A stretch of 49,169 nt of DNA from a virus. Its lineage: Duplodnaviria > Heunggongvirae > Uroviricota > Caudoviricetes. The position numbers and the translations under genes were made by a program. Where the stretch lies: the IMG/VR virus record IMGVR_UViG_2740892489_000001, one strand, 5' to 3'. The notes beneath the pieces are model-generated. The model saw only the letters and a program-made list of their open reading frames with translations. It searched no databases and was not told the DNA's origin. Below are positions 12,417 to 25,768 of this stretch, in pieces. Within the stretch, counting starts at the first letter, position 1. The number at the start of each line of letters is the position of its first letter.

Positions 12417-12437
12417 AAGGCGAGTTTCTCTCGCCTT
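12417..12437. other. Perfect 8-bp stem-loop between convergent genes (possible terminator)
   Basis: AAGGCGAG-TTTCT-CTCGCCTT, T6 on the 5' side only; not a canonical hairpin-plus-U-tract in either direction. Confidence 0.4.
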
Positions 12438-12440
12438 AAA

Positions 12441-13924
12441 TTAACTACAGTAACTATTGATTAAGTGAGAACTGAGCCAAGAGGTAATTGCATTCGTAGC
12501 ATGTTCATCAAGCATTGAGAATCCTAATATGATCATTATAAATGAAATCAGCAAAGTCAGAATCACAACGAATGTGGCTATAATCTGATAAGCTTTGTAT
12601 GCTTCTCTTAATGGTGTGACTGCAAGATTCTCATAGTCAGTATCATCAAGAAAACCATATAGTTTATCTCTCCAGACTAGCCTAGTATTATCAAGTATCT
12701 TAAAGTAATTTTTATTTATGAAGAGAGTTGTAACCTGAGATATAAAAATATATATAGATAACGCGAAGAACATATATGGGAATATGTTATTGGTTATATT
12801 AATCTTTGATGCGTCTAGCGCATATTTTATTGCAAATAGACTTATAACCAGAGCCAGATCTTTCCAAAGAGCGGATGTGATGTCTTTAGACTGACTTATT
12901 ATTTTTTGCGTGTCTTCAGCTAAGGTTTTCCTTAGATCGGACAGAGATTTAATAGTCTCTCTGCTGCTAGCGCGAATGTGGGCCTTATATAGTAATTTTG
13001 CTGACTCAAAGGCCATAGGGAGTTTTTTTTGGTAAACCCTCACAGAAGGATACATACTCTGGCCATTCTCGTGCTAACTCACTTGTGAAGAAAGTATGTT
13101 TGAGTTCAATCTCATTGCCCTCAATAAAGATCCAGTTTATTACAGTTTGTAAAACTGAATAGTCGGAAAGCAGAATGTCTGGATCTCCATAAATTAATTT
13201 TTTTGGTGGCTTTCCAGTTAAACAAATTGATTTCTTTTCATCTGCTAATAATTCATTAACGAGAGTGCGACAAAGCATATTGCAGGAAACTTGTAACCAT
13301 TTTTTGAAAAAGTTGTCCTCTGCCTCAGGCATTTTATAAAGTACCCAAGGAGCTATATCAGATGCAGGCATGAACTCACTAGAATAGAATTTAACGTAGC
13401 TCTGTAAATTGATTGAAGTTCGTACGGTTTCATTAGATTCAATTTTTTTCTGGAGCATGGTTCCATGGCTCAACAGAATATCCTAAAGTTTCAAATCCAT
13501 GTTTCAAACCGAGAATATTCACTTTATTGGTTATTGATACTAAATCATCATTGTGTAGAAAAACATTCCACCCTTCGAGCGTAAAAATATACCTGTTATT
13601 TTCGAATGCAATGCATTTTAGCGTAATGTTAAGTTTATCACCTTCACTGCATGACGATGGTTTTACTTCATCATTACAGTCATCTTTAACAGTAATTTCA
13701 ATCCAATTTGGTACGTTTTCGTAAACGTACTGCCAAAGAATGAGTGCATCTTTGTCCATTTTGGCAGAAATTAGAACGCGCGCAGAATCATTTTTTATTG
13801 ATTCTGATGCCAAAAATTCAGGGTCTTTCCTTGACGCCTGTATAGACTCATCGATTTTTTGAAGTATCGATGTCATCAGTAATAATCCTCGCAGTAGTAA
13901 CAATAATTTGTTTTCGCCCATCAT
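12441..13924 (-). CDS. Hypothetical protein with multi-pass membrane C-terminus; three track ORFs joined across homopolymer indels
   Basis: ORFs 13439..13924, 13006..13473 and 12441..13055 become one frame if T7 13443-13449 and T8 13023-13030 are each one base shorter; hydrophobic helices in last ~200 aa. Confidence 0.5.
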
Positions 13925-14907
13925 CTAAGTTTCTTATTTCTGGACGGTCATCTTCATTATAACTAATTACTACACTTTCTGCAGTTTCAATTTTTCGTCT
14001 TGGTGGTTTATGAATGCCATCTGCTTTTATAGTAAAGGATTCGCCTTCAATACCAGCATTTTTTGTTTGAGTTTTGAATGTGTTGAGAATTGGTGATTTT
14101 TCATCTAACGGCCCAAAAATGCTGGTCAATAACGGAGAAGCATCTTCAGGATTATATTCGAAATCAGCTCTGCTTAAAACTTCATATATTTTATTTACGC
14201 CGCTTTTTTGAATTGACTCTGGCAATAATTCTTTATGCCTTTTGAAGGTTATTTTCAGCGCATCAATAAGCTTATTGCAAAGTTCAATTTCAGAGTTGAC
14301 TCTTTTAACATTTAAGAAGCCTTTAAAATATCCTGAAATATTGGTTCTTTTACTCCTGTCTTTTACAATAACTTTCCCGCCTTTCCCACTTGGATCAAGT
14401 TGAATTAACGCTATTTTTTTGCATTGCCTCAGCTTTTTTTACGAAAGTTTCATGAAATCTTTCTAAAGTAGGCATTTGTTCTTCAGATAACTTTTCGTCA
14501 AGAACATAACGAACCACATCTTCATTATCGTATTTTATAATTGCATAGAATTTTTCCTTATCTGAAACCAATTCAAATAAGAAAAAGCATCCCATACTCG
14601 TGTTACCGCTAGAATGGTGTGACTGAAAATCACTGGCCAGTAGCTTCGATTGTTCTGTAAAACAATTAGCTTCAGCATCTGCTTTATCTCTAATGATACG
14701 CAGGATTCTTTCGGTATTTGAATTCTCCAGAAAAGTGAAAAGATTTCCTTTCAGTGAAGATTTGATACGTTCAAGAAAAAAATCCACATGCTGAACTGGT
14801 TTTATTTCTTTGAGAAGTGTCGGTGCTTCAAGATTCTTACCTACAACGTGAAAGATCATTTTATTAATGACTAAATTTTGTACGTCTTGTTCAGAAAGGA
14901 AACTCAT
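13848..14907 (-). CDS. NdpA/YejK-like (nucleoid-associated protein family) candidate; two track ORFs joined
   Basis: ORFs 14395..14907 and 13848..14225 fuse if T7 14414-14420 or 14434-14440 is one base shorter; motifs MIFHVV, GCFFLFELV...YAIIKYD, IQLDPSGKGGKVIVKDRSK recall the YejK family; GGAG before start. Confidence 0.45.
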
Positions 14908-17639: not shown

Positions 17640-17715
<76 letters not shown>

Positions 17716-17718
17716 TAT

Positions 17719-17793
<75 letters not shown>

Positions 17794-21344: not shown

Positions 21345-21481
21345 TATATGGCTGATTTATAATTGTGAGTTTAATATTATATTGACTCACTCATTGATCC
21401 AATACCTAACTTTACCAGCAACACCTCCGCCCCCAGTAGCACTGGCTGCTGGGGTGCGTTTTATTCATAAAGCAAGGCTGT

Positions 21482-22270
21482 ATGAGCGAGAAATTAAAGA
21501 TAGTCTATCGCCCATTACAAGAATTGTCACCGTATGCGCACAACGCCAGGACGCACAGTACTGAGCAGGTGGCACAACTGGTAGAAAGTATTAAGCAATT
21601 CGGCTGGACTAATCCGGTGCTGATTGACGAAAAGGGCGAAATTATTGCGGGTCACGGTCGTGTTATGGCGGCTGAAATGCTCAAAATGGATTCTGTTCCG
21701 GTCATTGTTCTGTCTGGCCTGACGGATGAGCAGAAAAAGGCGTACCGCCTGGCAGATAATCGCCTACCGATGAATGCTGGCTGGGATGAAGATCTATTGC
21801 GGATGGAGCTGTCGGACCTAATCAATGCTGATTTTGATGTCTCCCTGACAGGCTTCGGCCCGACAGAAATTGATGAACTGTTGACGGATGTTTTGCCCGG
21901 TACAGGAAATAAGGAGGAGCCGTATACGACGAAAATTGATACGCCTGTTTATGAGCCGTCGGGCGGTAAACCGGATATCAGTGAACTGTACGACGATACG
22001 AAAACTCAGGAGCTGATCAGCCGGATACGTTCGGCGTCCCTTGATCCTGATATTGAGAAATTCCTCCTGTGTGCGGCAGAACGTCACACGGTGTTTAATT
22101 TCAGCAGAATTGCGGACTATTACGCTCATGCCCCCGCTGAAATTCAGTGCCTTTTCGAGGAGTCGGCGCTGGTGATCATTGATTATCAGCAGGCTATTGA
22201 AAATGGATTTGTCCGAATGACGCAGCGCATGGTGGCGATCATGCATAGCGGGGAGGAGGAATATGCGTGA
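21482..22270 (+). CDS. ParB-like nuclease domain protein (YnaK-like)
   Basis: N-terminal IVYRPLQELSPYAHNARTHS...GHGRVMAA resembles a ParB N-terminal domain. Confidence 0.6.
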   Translation: MSEKLKIVYRPLQELSPYAHNARTHSTEQVAQLVESIKQFGWTNPVLIDEKGEIIAGHGRVMAAEMLKMDSVPVIVLSGLTDEQKKAYRLADNRLPMNAGWDEDLLRMELSDLINADFDVSLTGFGPTEIDELLTDVLPGTGNKEEPYTTKIDTPVYEPSGGKPDISELYDDTKTQELISRIRSASLDPDIEKFLLCAAERHTVFNFSRIADYYAHAPAEIQCLFEESALVIIDYQQAIENGFVRMTQRMVAIMHSGEEEYA

Positions 22271-23196
22271 TGATTTTTGCGCCTTTATTCTGACTCACGG
22301 GCGACCGGACAAAGTTCTGACTTACCGGACGTTGCGTCGTGCTGGCTATACCGGGAAAATTTTTATCGTTGTTGATGATGAAGATAAGACACGGCATCAG
22401 TACATGGCTGAATTTGGTGAACAGGTGCTGGTATTTTCCAAAGCCGATATTGCCAGTCGTTTTGACGAAGCCGATAATTTTGGTGACCGCCGCTCAATTT
22501 TTTTACGCCCGTAATGCCTGTTTCGACCTGGCAAAACTGGTCGGGTGTAAATACTTCATTCAGCTCGATGATGATTATCACGAGTTCCAGTTTCGGGTGG
22601 ATCGCAACTATGACCAGGCCTATTTCCCGATAAGGAAACTGGATGCGATCCTTTCTGAAATGCTGGCGTATTACGAATCAATACCCGCGCTTTCCATCGC
22701 TATGTCGCAGGGCGGGGATTTTCTTGGTGACAATGGCGGCCATGCTTCGTGGGTGAAACGCAAGGCAATGAACAGCTTTATCTGTTCGGTTGATCGACCG
22801 TTCTCATTCATGGGGCGCATTAACGAGGATGTGAATACGTACACGAATCTCGGTCGCTGTGGTGAATTGTTTATGACGATCGGTGCTGTCCAGTTAGGGC
22901 AGAAACAGACGCAGAAAAACAGCGGCGGAATGACCGAGCTGTATCTGGATTCCGGAACCTACGTTAAAAGTTTTTACTCCGTCATGTATGCGCCGTCGTG
23001 CGTAAAAATCTCACTGATGGGTGCCAGCCATAAACGCATTCACCATCAGGTCACCTGGAACAACGCTGCAGTAAAAATCCTTCACGAAAAATACAGGAAG
23101 AAGACACCCTGCATATCAATGGGGGTGACAAATGATTCCGTATTCGAAAGTCGAGTCTCTGGCAGCGTGCCGGATGACTGCACAACAAATCGCTGA
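22263..23196 (+). CDS. Hypothetical protein, possibly glycosyltransferase-like; frame broken at T7 run 22498-22504
   Basis: ORF 22263..22514 (AFILTHGRPD...) continues into ORF 22339..23196 frame (FYARNACFD..., IQLDDDY) if one T is removed. Confidence 0.4.
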
Positions 23197-23383
23197 CGTT
23201 CTGGATGTTGATCTGAACCGACTGAAAGAAAATCGGGAAGCAATGACAGATTTTTATGCGGCCATCCGTAAGGGCAGAGCGAAAGGTGAAGCCGAGTTAC
23301 GAGCGGCATTGTTTAAGCTTGCCAGAAAAGGGGATGCCTTTGCTCTGCGCGAACTACTCAGGGTGGATAAAAATCAGGACTAA
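23132..23383 (+). CDS. Small hypothetical protein upstream of terminase
   Basis: 83-aa ORF; overlaps end of upstream gene; function unknown. Confidence 0.3.
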   Translation: MIPYSKVESLAACRMTAQQIADVLDVDLNRLKENREAMTDFYAAIRKGRAKGEAELRAALFKLARKGDAFALRELLRVDKNQD

Positions 23384-23386
23384 CTG

Positions 23387-24486
23387 ATGAGCAGACCGGA
23401 CTGGGGGGCGTTGCAGCAGGAGTATATTGCTGAATACACCCGCTCCGGTATATCTCCGGTGGCATGGTGTGAAGCAAGGGGACTGAACTACGCAACAGCC
23501 CGTCGTTACATCAAAAAAAACTCCGAAAAATGCGCAGAAAGAAAATGCGCAAAACTGCGCAAAAAAAGTGCGCGAAAAAAAAACTGCGCAGACTGCGCAA
23601 AGGCAGAACGGAAAATCTCAGAAAAAAAAAGGCTGTATCCGATGCACTCCTGATTGAGGGGGACACGGAAGAAATTTCGTTCTGCCCCGATGAATTCGGT
23701 ATTTCTGACCAGCAGGCAAAATTCGCCATGTTGGTTGCTCAGGGGAAAAAGCCGACAGAGGCATACCGACTGGCTGGTTATGAGGGGCAAGGTGCGACAG
23801 CTAACAGCAACGCCAGCCGTATGCTTAGAAATGCCAGGGTTTATCGTGCTATCAGCTACTTCCGCAATCAGTACCAGAAACGCTATACCGCAGACCTGGA
23901 TTTACTGGTGAGCCAGTTGATGGCCATTGTCCAGGCCGACCCCAATCAGTTGGCACAATTTCGCCGTGTTAACTGCCGTTATTGCTGGGGCGAGAATCAT
24001 CTCTACCAGTGGCGTGATATTGCAGAATTCGATAAGGCTGCGGCACAGGCCTCCAGAGATGGTAAACCCGAGCCGGAATATGGAGGCCTCGGCTTTGTTG
24101 ATAACGCCATACCCAATCCGGATTGCCCGAAGTGCTGCGGTGAGGGAACGGGACAGCTTTATATGGCTGATACCACACTGCTTGATGGGGATGCGCGGCA
24201 ATTATATGCAGGGTCAAAGCTCGGAAAATACGGTGTTGAGATCCTGCTGGAGGATAAGGCTGCCGCCCGGCGTGAATTGTTGCGTTTGCTTTCTGCTGGC
24301 GGGGCATTATGTGCAGATAAACGGCTACAGGAACTGGAAATTGAACGGCGCAGAATAGAAAACCAGAAGCTGCGCAAAGAGATCGAAACGGTGGAGGATA
24401 ATGAACATCCCCAGCCTGTGGCGATCAATATTAATGTGGTTGATGCCAGATTAAGGAGTGATGAAGATGATCTCTCCGACGCTTAA
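23387..24486 (+). CDS. Terminase small subunit; frame ambiguous through A-run repeat region 23513-23630
   Basis: N-terminal ORF 23387..23653 and ORF 23530..24486 (AKFAMLVAQGKKPTEAYRLAGY...ANSNASRMLRNARV) separated only by A8/A7/A9 runs. Confidence 0.6.
23513..23630. repeat. Array of six TGCGC(A/G) hexamers interleaved with A6-A9 tracts
   Basis: TGCGCA at 23531, 23546, 23556, 23585, 23594 and TGCGCG at 23569; A runs at 23513, 23561, 23575, 23622. Confidence 0.5.
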
Positions 24487-25768
24487 TGTGCCTCAGGCGC
24501 GATTTCTTTCAATGCCCCATAAATTTAAAGCCTATATTGCTGGTTTTGGCTCGGGCAAAACATGGGTTGGGTGTGGCGGCATATGCAAGGGGATTTGGGA
24601 GCATCCAGGTATAAATCAGGGATATTTTGCGCCAACGTATCCCCAAATTCGCGATATTTTTTACCCTACAGTGGAAGAAGTTGCTGCTGACTGGGGATTG
24701 AACGTAAAAATTAATGAGGGAAATAAAGAGGTTCACTTTTATTACGGACGCCAGTATCGGGGAACCACTATCTGCAGATCGATGGAGAAGCCACAAACGA
24801 TCGTCGGTTTCAAAATTGGTAATGCGCTGGTGGATGAACTGGATATTTTGCCGAAGGAAAAAGCCAGAACGGCGTGGCGCAAGATAATTGCGCGTATGCG
24901 TTATAAGATTGATGGACTTCGCAACGGTATTGACGTTACAACCACGCCGGAAGGATTCAAATTTGTCTACGAGCAGTTTGTTAAAGCCGTGCGTGAAAAA
25001 ACAGAGCTGGCCTCACTGTATGGTCTGGTGCAGGCATCTACTTTCGATAATGAAAAGAACCTGCCAGCAGATTACATTCCTTCACTTCTTGAATCATACC
25101 CTCCAGGGTTGATTAAAGCCTATCTTCTAGGACGGTTTACTAACCTGACAAGTGGTACTGTTTACCATCAGTTTGACCGGAAACTGAATAATTGCGAAGA
25201 AGTGGAGCAGCCAGGGGAGCCGATTTATATTGGGATGGATTTTAACGTTGGAAAGATGGCGGGAATCGTCCATGTGCTGCGTTTGGGGCTTCCATGTGCG
25301 GTAACTGAAATCATCAATGCCTACGATACGCCGGATATGATCCGCCTCATTAAAGAACGCTTCTGGCCGTATGACGGGCATGATTACCGGAAAGTGAGGG
25401 AGATTTATATTTATCCAGATGCTTCCGGAGATTCCAGAAAATCAAGTAACGCAAGTACGACGGATATAGCCCAGCTTAAGCAGGCAGGTTTTAACGTTGT
25501 GGTGAACAGCTCGAACCCGCCAGTAAAAGATCGCGTTAACTCAATGAATGCAATGTTCTGCAATGCCAATGGTGAGCGTCGCTATAAAGTTAATGTGAAG
25601 CGTTGTCCGGTATATGCCGAATCTCTGGAGCAACAGGTCTGGGATGATAAGGGGGAGCCTGATAAAAAATCTGGCAATGATCACCCGAATGATGCCGGAG
25701 GTTATTTCATCGTTAAGCAATTCCCTATTGTCAAACCGACCGGAAGAGTCACATCACTTCGGATTTAA
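24458..25768 (+). CDS. Terminase large subunit
   Basis: Walker A-like AGFGSGKTW near N-terminus; 436 aa. Confidence 0.85.
   Translation: MMKMISPTLNVPQARFLSMPHKFKAYIAGFGSGKTWVGCGGICKGIWEHPGINQGYFAPTYPQIRDIFYPTVEEVAADWGLNVKINEGNKEVHFYYGRQYRGTTICRSMEKPQTIVGFKIGNALVDELDILPKEKARTAWRKIIARMRYKIDGLRNGIDVTTTPEGFKFVYEQFVKAVREKTELASLYGLVQASTFDNEKNLPADYIPSLLESYPPGLIKAYLLGRFTNLTSGTVYHQFDRKLNNCEEVEQPGEPIYIGMDFNVGKMAGIVHVLRLGLPCAVTEIINAYDTPDMIRLIKERFWPYDGHDYRKVREIYIYPDASGDSRKSSNASTTDIAQLKQAGFNVVVNSSNPPVKDRVNSMNAMFCNANGERRYKVNVKRCPVYAESLEQQVWDDKGEPDKKSGNDHPNDAGGYFIVKQFPIVKPTGRVTSLRI

Follow-up and report, generated by a model that had tools for sequence, protein, structure and literature searches.

Positions 21,482–23,196 of the window, the whole 49,169-nt stretch of DNA that was analysed here, contain a two-gene unit encoding a ParB-fold protein, YnaK, and a glycosyltransferase of the TAGT (TET-associated glycosyltransferase) family. 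The source of the pair is a Rac-type E. coli prophage. We tentatively propose, with somewhat less than even confidence, that the pair is a ParB-assisted, late-expressed, two-component DNA glycosyltransferase module, analogous to the ParB-dependent thymine dioxygenases. The pair represents a distinct, very widespread clade of a DNA-sugar enzyme family tied to a ParB-type partner and a packaging operon, and the clade is present in an E. coli prophage showing no known way to make a hydroxymethyl-pyrimidine acceptor. If the pair modifies DNA, a new acceptor chemistry is implied, and the just-discovered ParB-activator principle is widened from dioxygenases to glycosyltransferases; if it modifies protein, the TAGT/GREB1 fold acquires a new phage function. 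The pair would also account for many of the solitary TAGT homologues (present in 288 of 753 phage genomes; PMC13216743) that recent surveys left unassigned. In RefSeq, full-length ynaK is systematically mis-annotated, which the analysis puts right; it also brings to light a protein domain that had not been catalogued, YnaK-C. The pair is directly testable in E. coli with inducible Rac-type phages.

Locus layout and the reading frame of the second gene

The two genes lie between trkG and the terminase genes, with the coordinates and neighbours given by the first-pass annotation of this DNA; all features described below are on the + strand. Upstream, a terminator scan revealed a trkG intrinsic terminator (21,431–21,464), comprising a 10-bp stem with 7 GC pairs followed by a T-tract, whose end is located ~20–30 nt upstream of the ynaK start codon. 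A promoter scan revealed no match for the ynaK/TAGT pair above shuffled expectation. The two genes overlap by 8 nt, with the TAGT start codon positioned over the ynaK stop codon (ATGCGTGA, 22,263–22,270) and preceded by a Shine-Dalgarno sequence, GGGGAGGAGG; ynaK and TAGT are translationally coupled. Downstream, the TAGT 3′ end is overlapped by the first packaging gene (23,132–23,383), which encodes a small protein resembling part of the small terminase subunit (phrog_309 'terminase small subunit', E 8e-23). This gene is followed by terS (23,387–24,486; Terminase_2 in Pfam, annotation; frameshifted in the window) and terL (24,458–25,768; Terminase_6N/6C in Pfam, annotation). Because the TAGT 3′ end overlaps a packaging gene that is followed by terS and terL, the pair belongs to the packaging operon, at whose head it lies. 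The terminator shields the pair from transcription of trkG, and the two genes would thus depend on late, antiterminated read-through for their expression; the terminator, the lack of a promoter match, and the gene overlaps together suggest that the pair is expressed late. Neither parS-like nor other meaningful repeats were found around ynaK and TAGT, and the sole repeat found near the pair is a TGCGCA array inside terS.

In the raw window, the second gene is split into two segments in two frames (22,263–22,514 and 22,339–23,196). The split occurs at a T7 homopolymer (22,498–22,504), which is T6 in the other genomes compared, and as a result the AFILTHGRPD and IQLDDDY motifs fall in different frames. 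T6, not T7, is present in 808 of 808 complete E. coli genomes carrying the segment. Compared to a 99.9% identical prophage, the window contains 28 single-base insertions in 37 kb, all in A/T homopolymers, and such insertions also break trkG, terS, and the portal gene. The T6 run in the 808 genomes, together with the 28 homopolymer insertions, indicates that the TAGT frameshift is a sequencing or assembly artefact. The real TAGT product is an intact 310-aa protein (WP_001204032.1), and the cluster of the intact protein has 2693 member sequences. The first-pass annotation missed that, in the raw window, the second gene is not a single open reading frame. A decaying pseudogene, or a programmed or phase-variable frameshift at the T-run, would accommodate the split in the window but is rejected, its probability being close to nil given the absence of T7 from the 808 genomes, the window-wide spread of the insertions, and the size of the intact cluster.

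YnaK and its glycosyltransferase partner

Full-length ynaK (21,482–22,270) encodes a 262-aa ParB/Srx-fold adaptor protein, as defined by Pfam, alignment, and predicted structure. With a pI of 4.6 and a net charge of −21, the protein is strongly acidic; the median pI of YnaK-type partners is also 4.6. Residues 1–95 (21,482–21,766) form a ParB_N domain having the ParB-CTPase/Srx fold (Pfam E 8.8e-7, structure alignment, Foldseek). Specifically, YnaK scores 29.3 bits against Pfam ParB_N (PF02195; cutoff 26.3), phmmer aligns it to Spo0J/ParB structures (1.8e-5), and Foldseek matches its model to Noc, PadC, ParB, KorB, and Srx, in agreement with the first-pass description of the first protein as ParB-like. 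The 'nuclease' in 'ParB-like nuclease domain' is merely a historical domain name. No HTH domain was detected in YnaK by Pfam or in the predicted model. Box II of E. coli YnaK reads G57-H-G-R60 (21,650–21,661), whereas partition ParBs have GERR; the arginine is kept and the GERR glutamate is replaced by His. The Box II arginine is missing in 5 of 20 diverse YnaK-type partners. This arginine is needed for nucleotide binding in the ParB-fold proteins tested, and nucleotide binding by the ParB fold is not predictable from sequence (PMC12704722).

Residues 96–141 (21,767–21,904) comprise a helical segment, GWDxxLLxxEL...LTGFxxxEIDxLL, defined by profile matches. YnaK residues 3–141 match phrog_498 'DNA methyltransferase' (E 3.7e-51), and residues 10–141 match PADLOC MTase_II (E 1e-38). 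By these profile matches, YnaK 1–141, consisting of ParB_N and the helical segment, corresponds to the N-module of phage ParB–methyltransferase fusions.

A linear motif follows, Y148-T-T-K-I-D-T-P-V-Y157-E-P159 (21,923–21,958), which is conserved in the partners with the consensus Y[ST]xKIxxPxYxP. The motif is present in 22 of 22 diverse YnaK-type partners, and its Y, P, and Y are invariant (alignment A7). In the AlphaFold2 model, residues 136–157 have pLDDT below 50, and the motif-bearing linker is probably disordered; the motif may serve as a peptide on which the glycosyltransferase docks, or may itself be the acceptor site. The C-terminal part of the protein is a helical domain, YnaK-C (residues 166–255, 21,977–22,246), identifiable by the conserved pattern FLxxAAxRHxxF ... 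IAxxYAxA ... QxLxExSALVIIDxxxAIxxG. YnaK-C has no Pfam match and no significant PDB relative, and is represented by about 1,200 cluster representatives. The C-terminal module of YnaK, i.e. the motif and the helical domain, is previously undescribed and is uncatalogued in domain databases.

The partner gene (22,263–23,196) encodes, without the extra T, the 310-aa TAGT or 'GREB1-related' GT-A glycosyltransferase, assigned by Pfam, PHROG, fold, and motifs. The N-terminal and C-terminal fragments from the raw window score 40.2 and 73.4 bits, respectively, against PF20691 (cutoff 27.5); since the two halves match independently, the signal is far beyond chance. PF20691 is present in 120 of 120 TAGT homologues among the matches listed. 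TAGT also matches phrog_842 'beta-glucosyl-HMC-alpha-glucosyltransferase' (E 1e-103), a label that is a family name and not a function. No match was obtained with NCBIfam and PADLOC models.

The catalytic motifs are R14 (22,302–22,304), D102-D-D104 in IQLDDDY (22,567–22,575), N-E-D-V 187–190 (22,822–22,833), and H260-H261 (23,041–23,046). R14, DDD102–104, D189, and H261 are invariant in 45 homologues, and E188 and H260 are nearly so. The conserved residues fit the R...DDD...ED motif shared by JGT and the phage GT-A enzymes that act on DNA (bioRxiv 10.1101/2023.12.21.572611). In the AlphaFold2 model, residues 1–190 form a confident GT-A core (pLDDT about 90), while the C-terminal third is basic, nearly invariant, and modelled with low confidence when folded alone. 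Foldseek matches the model to GT2/GT-A enzymes in the PDB and to TAGT-domain phage proteins in BFVD, with TM-scores of 0.70/0.77; glycogenins are among the structural matches at E about 1e-3, which is a weak, general GT-A similarity. No solved-structure relatives of TAGT were found, and no signal or membrane segments are visible in the predicted models of YnaK and TAGT. On sequence and model evidence, TAGT is a metal-dependent (DxD) GT-A sugar-nucleotide transferase of PF20691. TAGT is the best conserved part of the pair and has an intact active site; the ParB domain is the least conserved part.

The first-pass annotation had picked out AFILTHGRPD (residues 7–16) and IQLDDDY in the second protein, and both are present. 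Its suggestion that IQLDDDY is a GT-A DxD signature is borne out by the PF20691 match, the GT-A model, and the invariance of the aspartates in 45 homologues. Its failure to place the protein in a family has been superseded: profile searches give PF20691 TAGT and phrog_842, a glycosyltransferase assignment. The outcome that would have told against its reading, a routine phage morphogenesis family, did not arise.

Distribution, acceptor, and candidate functions

In 25 of 25 genome loci from many phyla, the TAGT gene is immediately preceded by a YnaK-type gene that abuts or overlaps it, and in 5 metagenome loci too a YnaK-type gene comes directly before it. The arrangement also occurs in Lactobacillus phage c5, in halovirus HHTV-2, and in a Porphyromonas phage; in Nocardia phage NTR1, the upstream Orf1 overlaps the TAGT gene. 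The pair is usually followed by terminase genes, which belong to five unrelated TerL families, and in phage c5 it starts 79 nt after the mapped cos site. Unrelated phages from many phyla carry the pair at this position, in front of the terminase; it is therefore a late-operon module that has been conserved, not an insertion specific to one lineage. Vibrio phage pv27 and two further loci (L033 and L026) have the pair away from any terminase; in pv27 it is located among primase, exonuclease, and helicase genes. Locus L026, a Hyphomonadaceae prophage, also encodes a second TAGT, together with a fusion of TAGT and a SAM methyltransferase, resembling what is seen in DNA glycan-building clusters. 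About 15% of complete E. coli genomes carry the pair, as do the virulent or lytic phages c5, pv27, and NTR1. In a viral-contig scan, nearly all matches were near-identical E. coli prophages, adding little diversity. Literature searches on ynaK, ParB plus TAGT, HHTV-2, and Lactobacillus phage c5/LL-Ku found nothing specific to the pair.

The part of the partner that always accompanies TAGT is the linker motif with YnaK-C. The ParB domain is sometimes missing, being wholly absent from the partner in pv27 and in one further locus (L023). TAGT divergence tracks YnaK-C (r = 0.70) better than ParB_N (r = 0.45), and in one representative protein (P0390) the glycosyltransferase, ParB_N, the motif, and YnaK-C are fused in one polypeptide. 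The synteny, the fusion, and the correlated divergence suggest that TAGT depends on YnaK. Between the E. coli pair and those of Bacteroides, Firmicutes, and a haloarchaeal virus, identity is 43–57%; such identity across so distant hosts points to a substrate that all of them share.

No base of ordinary DNA carries a hydroxyl, and to our knowledge phage DNA glycosylation occurs only where a hydroxymethyl-pyrimidine is made first. Characterised phage members of PF20691 glycosylate 5-hydroxymethylcytosine in DNA or a sugar already attached. The PGAP annotation of a nearly identical full prophage, together with Pfam searches of its hypothetical genes, revealed no TET/JBP dioxygenase, no thymidylate-synthase-type hydroxymethylase, and no C5-methyltransferase. 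In a survey of four genes on either side of the pair in 19 diverse loci, none of these three enzymes was present among the Pfam families listed for the 132 neighbouring ORFs. In ~163 of the 191 kb of pv27, no hydroxymethylase is annotated; what is present is a thymidylate synthase of the ordinary kind, adjoining DHFR, and a gene resembling PurZ. No report of modified DNA was found for any phage carrying the pair.

According to the module that we propose, Q-antiterminated transcription during lytic growth would pass the trkG terminator, and both proteins would be made together. YnaK-C would bind the basic C-terminal third of TAGT, and the ParB module, with or without bound nucleotide triphosphate, would hold or activate TAGT on double-stranded DNA, a role modelled on ParB176 acting for the thymine dioxygenase 5mYOX176. 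A sugar would then be moved onto replicated phage DNA before or during packaging, and progeny genomes would be shielded, on entering a new host, against restriction or other defences that target DNA. DNA modification is favoured by the identity of YnaK 1–141 with the ParB–methyltransferase N-module, by the position of the pair among replication genes in pv27, and by the TAGT–SAM methyltransferase fusion in L026. Counting against it are the lack of an acceptor route in the prophage and the 19 loci, the acidity of YnaK and its lack of an HTH, a Box II that has no arginine in 5 of 20 partners, the absence of the ParB domain in pv27 and L023, and the low-confidence model of the TAGT C-terminal third. 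A further point against it is that the eukaryotic family member GREB1 glycosylates a protein (PMC7968844).

Several of these points bear on the strongest alternative, protein glycosylation, which we consider somewhat unlikely. Here TAGT would O-glycosylate YnaK at the linker Tyr/Thr, in a glycogenin-like manner, or would modify another conserved protein, and YnaK would be a substrate or substrate adaptor and not a DNA loader. A conserved Tyr and Ser/Thr in a low-confidence, probably disordered linker, found in all 22 partners, would suit such a target, and the strictly co-inherited element is the motif with YnaK-C, not the ParB domain. The unsuccessful search for a DNA acceptor pathway in the prophage and the 19 loci, the protein O-GlcNAc transferase activity of GREB1 within the same family, the glycogenins among the structural matches, and the acidity of YnaK, which is therefore unlike a typical DNA binder, point the same way. 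However, the glycogenin matches reflect only the general similarity noted above, and those relatives from phages and kinetoplastids that have been characterised act on DNA. Protein glycosylation also leaves unexplained why the partner usually has a ParB module that elsewhere is fused to DNA methyltransferases, and why the pair is located among replication genes in pv27.

We regard it as unlikely that the pair needs no hydroxymethylated base at all, acting either by direct glycosylation of ordinary DNA or through a self-glycosylating, glycogenin-like ParB adaptor. In the first case, the exocyclic amine of a canonical base, a DNA end, or the backbone is a possible acceptor; in the second, the sugar-tagged tyrosine motif possibly has a role in genome packaging or protection. 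Direct DNA glycosylation, if true, would constitute a new class of post-replicative DNA modification extending from Bacteroides to haloarchaeal phages.

The location of the pair immediately 5′ of terS/terL with five different TerL families, and 79 nt past cos in c5, could alternatively reflect a packaging accessory: the ParB-like protein would nick DNA, or bind it near cos/pac, in aid of the terminase, and the glycosyltransferase would be a passenger or would modify some component of the packaging machinery. The ParB domain of the ParB-methylase Bce_0392 is reported to nick DNA non-specifically (PMC5512222). Yet a terminase-specific factor should co-vary with its terminase, whereas the same conserved pair combines with unrelated terminases and packaging strategies and is remote from any terminase in pv27, L033, and L026. 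The ParB domain is less conserved than any other part of the pair and is at times missing; the glycosyltransferase is the best conserved part and has an intact active site. We consider this explanation very improbable.

The chances are slighter still that the pair is a lysogenic-conversion moron, expressed from the prophage and altering the host through surface glycosylation, superinfection exclusion, or modification of incoming foreign DNA. The first-pass annotation had called the position typical of a moron, and the slot between lysis genes and terminase is indeed common for morons, with the adjoining trkG being a real one; prophage glycosyltransferases such as TarP modify surface polymers, and action on invading DNA has been suggested for others. 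That reading is contradicted by the lack of a convincing promoter, the trkG terminator directly upstream, the overlap and coupling with late genes, and the recurrence of the slot in unrelated phages. It is also at odds with the lack of visible signal or membrane segments, with the presence of the pair in virulent or lytic phages, and with 43–57% identity across Gram-negative, Gram-positive, and archaeal-virus hosts whose surfaces share no acceptor.

Comparison with known systems

TAGT shares PF20691, phrog_842, the GT-A fold, and DxD with the T2/T6 beta-glucosyl-HMC-alpha-glucosyltransferase (PMC13216743), the name that automated phage annotation gives to the TAGT gene. The identity of TAGT to the T4-like Aeromonas phage versions is only about 23–25%. 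The T-even enzyme works on glucosyl-hmC, to which it attaches another glucose, and depends on dCMP hydroxymethylase and alpha-GT, which are absent from the prophage. With this identity, and with no alpha-GT, beta-GT, or hmC-synthesis genes in the prophage, TAGT does not appear to be an orthologue of the T-even enzyme.

The definition of TAGT and of the TET/5mYOX-associated phage GT-A glycosyltransferases reportedly comes from Iyer et al. 2013. The TET/5mYOX-associated enzymes, which are phage-encoded and act post-replicatively on DNA, and kinetoplastid JGT share the R...DDD...ED motif with TAGT (bioRxiv 10.1101/2023.12.21.572611). TET/5mYOX-type enzymes cluster with a C5-methyltransferase and a 5mYOX, or with a hydroxymethylase, whereas the YnaK-linked clade has neither in the prophage and the 19 loci surveyed and has a strictly linked YnaK. 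About 65% of the glycosyltransferase contigs in one survey are without such neighbours and were left unexplained (Pyle et al., bioRxiv 10.1101/2023.12.21.572611). GREB1, the human O-GlcNAc transferase of the oestrogen receptor (PMC7968844) and the source of the NCBI product name 'GREB1-related protein', has the TAGT-type catalytic domain in common with the phage enzyme; it differs in being a large multidomain protein of eukaryotes that acts on a protein and lacks a ParB partner.

On the YnaK side, the N-domain fold and the Box II glycine and arginine are common to E. coli YnaK and the partition ParB, Noc, and KorB CTPase clamps. In contrast to partition ParB, YnaK is without an HTH, has GHGR for GERR, and is strongly acidic, and no parA is present in the prophage annotation. 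YnaK is thus not a partition protein, although phage records annotate YnaK-type proteins as 'chromosome partitioning protein'. In the ParB–DNA methyltransferase fusions (phrog_498, MTase_II, Bce_0392), which are enriched in prophages (PMC12704722), the whole N-module aligns to YnaK 1–141; there the ParB module is covalently fused to the methyltransferase, whereas in YnaK it is joined to the YnaK-C adaptor and the glycosyltransferase is separate.

The 5mYOX176/ParB176 pair, like TAGT/YnaK, comprises a phage DNA-modifying enzyme encoded beside a ParB homologue (PMC13229309). ParB176 has an N-terminal nucleotide-binding fold and a C-terminal domain, has no DNA-binding domain, and was shown experimentally to be required for 5mYOX176 activity on dsDNA (PMC13229309). 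In the loci examined, TAGT and YnaK have the same architecture: an adjoining ParB homologue with N- and C-domains and without a DNA-binding domain. The nucleotide-binding residues of ParB176 are not strictly needed (PMC13229309), and, in parallel, some YnaK proteins have no Box II arginine. The two pairs differ in the enzyme that accompanies the ParB homologue, 5mYOX176 being an Fe/2OG dioxygenase and TAGT a glycosyltransferase.

Genomic setting and integrity of the two genes

An E. coli prophage of the lambdoid, Rac type makes up the window; it is full-length, adjoins ttcA at its integration site and shares 99.9% identity over 37 kb with prophages of several complete genomes. The late genes are arranged on the + strand in the order Q, two tRNA genes, holin, lysozyme, Rz and trkG, followed by ORF1 (ynaK; 21482–22270, + strand, 262 aa), which matches Pfam ParB_N, and ORF2 (the TAGT gene; 22263–23196, + strand), which matches PF20691. 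Behind ORF2 come a small gene resembling terS, then terS itself, terL and the portal gene. ORF2 begins at 22263 and so shares the last eight bases of ORF1, stop codon included (overlap sequence ATGCGTGA); a ribosome-binding site, GGGGAGGAGG, precedes its start.

In the raw window, ORF2 is broken into two frames at a T7 run (22498–22504). Alignment of window 1–37004 (37 kb) with a 99.9% identical reference prophage reveals 28 single-base insertions and 2 deletions (examples of these indels are at 13023, 13443, 20030, 22498, 23513–23622 and 25921), and all 28 insertions are located within A/T homopolymers. Spurious frameshifts from this systematic over-calling appear in the TAGT gene, trkG, the portal gene and the gene for a putative 477-aa moron protein, and five times in terS. 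A query centred on the ORF2 run found T7 in none of 808 complete E. coli genomes. We therefore reject the frameshift as genuine and conclude that the real ORF2 gene is intact. Its product is WP_001204032.1 (310 aa; protein cluster of 2693 member sequences), and the gene is carried by about 15% of complete E. coli genomes.

In full-length Rac prophages, RefSeq/PGAP labels the intact ynaK (262 aa) a pseudogene "missing C-terminus" and annotates the first 258 nt only, leaving about 520 nt of coding sequence, including that for the helical C-terminal domain (YnaK-C), unannotated (window 21482–22270; comparison loci L001, 4083–4874, and L003, 34466–35250). This probably arises because the YnaK of the K-12 reference is already truncated, to an 87-aa stump.

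A strong intrinsic terminator (21431–21454, plus its T-tract) closes the trkG unit about 30 nt 5′ of the ynaK start, and promoter matches score no better than the shuffled background. The reading frames of ynaK and the TAGT gene overlap, as do those of the TAGT gene and the packaging gene that follows. Together, these features point to expression of the pair through Q-antiterminated late transcription. The first-pass annotation had called this a typical moron position, a description that this anatomy does not fit.

Three other elements of the prophage are of note. The two tRNA genes, tRNA-Thr(tgt) and tRNA-Gly(tcc), occupy 17640–17793, 3′ of the Q-like antiterminator gene and 5′ of the lysis cassette. 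On the minus strand, at 12433–14896, an insert of low GC content (about 34%) between replication and Nin-like genes encodes the 477-aa protein, which lacks a Pfam match, and an NA37-type nucleoid-associated protein, and looks like a real moron or candidate defence cassette. The 5′ part of terS (23513–23600) contains an array of phased A-tracts and three to four TGCGCA repeats spaced 25–38 nt apart; the array codes for a K/R/C-rich repeat and is a candidate pac or TerS-binding site.

The TAGT glycosyltransferase and its ParB-like partner

Each half of the split ORF2 matches the TET-associated glycosyltransferase (TAGT) family, PF20691; taken as a whole, the protein matches phrog_842 (E 1e-103). 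The AFILTHGRPD and IQLDDDY motifs, quoted earlier for a possibly glycosyltransferase-like protein, are both present in ORF2. An AlphaFold2 model has a confident GT-A core over residues 1–190, and Foldseek with this model retrieves GT2-type GT-A enzymes from the PDB and TAGT-domain phage proteins from BFVD; no solved structure of a TAGT family member was detectable by sequence. Across 45 homologues there is no variation at R14, D102-D-D104, D189 or H261 and very little at E188 or H260, a pattern that fits the R...DDD...ED motif reported for phage GT-A enzymes acting on DNA and for the base-J glucosyltransferase of kinetoplastids (bioRxiv 10.1101/2023.12.21.572611). The last conserved third, residues 191–285, is basic (+8) and almost invariant, and has low model confidence when the protein is folded alone. 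Sequence, fold and active site all place ORF2 securely in the TAGT family.

YnaK can be divided into four parts: a ParB/Srx fold (residues 1–95) with Box II reading GHGR instead of GERR; a block (residues 1–141) aligning to the N-terminal module of phage ParB–DNA-methyltransferase fusions (phrog_498, E 4e-51; PADLOC MTase_II, E 1e-38); a linker of low model confidence with the motif Y148-TTKIDTPV-Y157-EP; and YnaK-C (residues 166–255), for which no relatives were found in Pfam or the PDB. The protein is strongly acidic (pI 4.6, net charge −21), as is general across the family. YnaK is a member of the ParB/Srx superfamily; a role as a partition ParB is rejected, as YnaK lacks an HTH domain and the prophage annotation contains no parA.

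Compared over 20 diverse pairs, TAGT sequences average 54% pairwise identity, the C-halves of YnaK 49% and the ParB domains 32%; TAGT divergence correlates with that of the C-half at r = 0.70 versus r = 0.45 for the ParB domain. The linker motif, Y[ST]xKIxxPxYxP, is present in 22/22 partners, and the partners upstream of TAGT in Vibrio phage pv27 (OR413349.1; 139 aa) and a Lachnospiraceae prophage (134 aa) comprise motif and C-domain only. Thus, the obligate TAGT partner is the motif plus YnaK-C, and the ParB module is a frequent yet dispensable addition; the Box II arginine is missing from five of the 20 YnaK partners. A search of 1.8 billion cluster representatives found YnaK-C in 1192 proteins; in all of the best 150 it is located in the C-terminal part of the protein, and these 150 are mostly 250–300 aa, with a minority of about 130–200 aa. 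A single metagenomic cluster representative, P0390 (534 aa), has a TAGT-like glycosyltransferase, ParB_N, the motif (YTxxIxxPxYxP) and the C-domain in one chain; with the gene order reversed, it is a Rosetta-stone fusion of the pair.

Conservation of the pair at the head of packaging operons

A YnaK-type gene lies immediately 5′ of the TAGT gene, overlapping or abutting it, at every one of 25 genome loci from a TAGT profile search (from Enterobacteriaceae, Bacteroides, Dysgonomonas, Lachnospiraceae, Desulfovibrionaceae, Prosthecochloris, Hyphomonadaceae, Saccharibacteria and others), and directly upstream of TAGT at five metagenome loci. The same arrangement occurs in Lactobacillus phage c5 (NC_019449), in halovirus HHTV-2 and, at 28% identity, in a divergent phage of Porphyromonas; an unannotated Orf1, a putative partner, holds the slot in Nocardia phage NTR1. 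At 19 diverse loci, surveyed by simple ORF calling as family counts rather than per-locus tables, the terminases that follow the pair belong to five unrelated families for the large subunit (Terminase_6N, Terminase_3, T7-type, lambda GpA and HK97-type TerL) and four for the small subunit; portals come next, and the upstream genes are variable. In c5 (L116, 1–1713), the linear genome opens with the two genes of the pair, which precede terminase and start 79 nt past the experimentally mapped cos site. Exceptions occur, such as pv27, a 191-kb T4-like myovirus (L114, 5459–6888; L119–L121), in which the ParB-less 139-aa partner and a 333-aa TAGT lie among primase, exonuclease and helicase genes.

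The pv27 genome also contains a gene resembling PurZ ("2-aminooxy adenylosuccinate synthetase"), a hint that its DNA may carry 2-aminoadenine. A Hyphomonadaceae MAG prophage (L026, 2614–6161) has a ParB/YnaK gene followed by two TAGT genes, the first fused to a class-I SAM methyltransferase domain (Methyltransf_23/11), which suggests that a methylated di-saccharide is built. A JGI metagenome phage contig with a ParB–TAGT pair (L029, 17837–20316) has four consecutive GT2-family glycosyltransferase genes 3′ of the capsid gene, which may serve virion glycosylation or glycan extension.

Acceptor and candidate functions

Characterised TAGT relatives require 5-hmC or 5-hmU. No TET/JBP dioxygenase, hydroxymethylase or C5-methyltransferase was found in the prophage (annotation and Pfam scans of hypothetical genes) or among the Pfam families listed for 132 neighbouring ORFs at the 19 loci, and no hydroxymethylase is annotated in the parts of pv27 covered. 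One contextual hallmark of the family, a linked hydroxymethyl-pyrimidine pathway, was thus not found for ORF2, and the label "beta-glucosyl-HMC-alpha-glucosyltransferase" should therefore not be taken as its function.

The most economical model, which we put forward tentatively, is a ParB-assisted DNA glycosyltransferase, in which a ParB-module protein without a DNA-binding domain would assist TAGT in glycosylating DNA. DNA as target is favoured by the occurrence of the ParB module in DNA methyltransferases, by the 43–57% identity from E. coli to an archaeal virus, which argues for a universal substrate, by the position of the pv27 pair among replication genes, and by the extra TAGT and TAGT–methyltransferase fusion of the Hyphomonadaceae prophage. 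Glycosylation of protein, as self-glycosylation or glycosylation of a partner, is a less probable alternative, supported by the lack of a detected acceptor pathway for DNA, the acidity of YnaK and its conserved tyrosine motif. A packaging-accessory role of the pair, lysogenic conversion by it, and pseudogene decay are far less probable than either.

What appears undescribed in the available literature is the combination: a TAGT clade with a YnaK-C adaptor, usually with a ParB module as well, placed where the packaging operon begins. Prior mention is possible in Iyer et al. 2013, who reportedly established the TAGT family and considered ParB in modification clusters. Published surveys leave solitary TAGT genes unexplained in 288 of 753 phage genomes (PMC13216743) and solitary GT-A genes in about 65% of contigs (bioRxiv 10.1101/2023.12.21.572611); both list ParB-like and terminase genes as neighbours, with no description of the YnaK–TAGT pair.

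Within the TAGT family, the T2/T6 enzyme adds a second glucose onto glucosyl-hmC (PMC13216743). Identity between T4-like phage TAGT versions and the ORF2 clade is only about 23–25%. The proposed analogue of the pair is the ParB-dependent thymine dioxygenases, in which the cognate enzyme is activated on dsDNA by a ParB lacking a DNA-binding domain, with no strict requirement for the nucleotide-binding residues of that ParB (PMC13229309). As modelled here, the pair would be a variation on two known kinds of system, phage DNA glycosyltransferases and ParB-partnered DNA-modifying enzymes.
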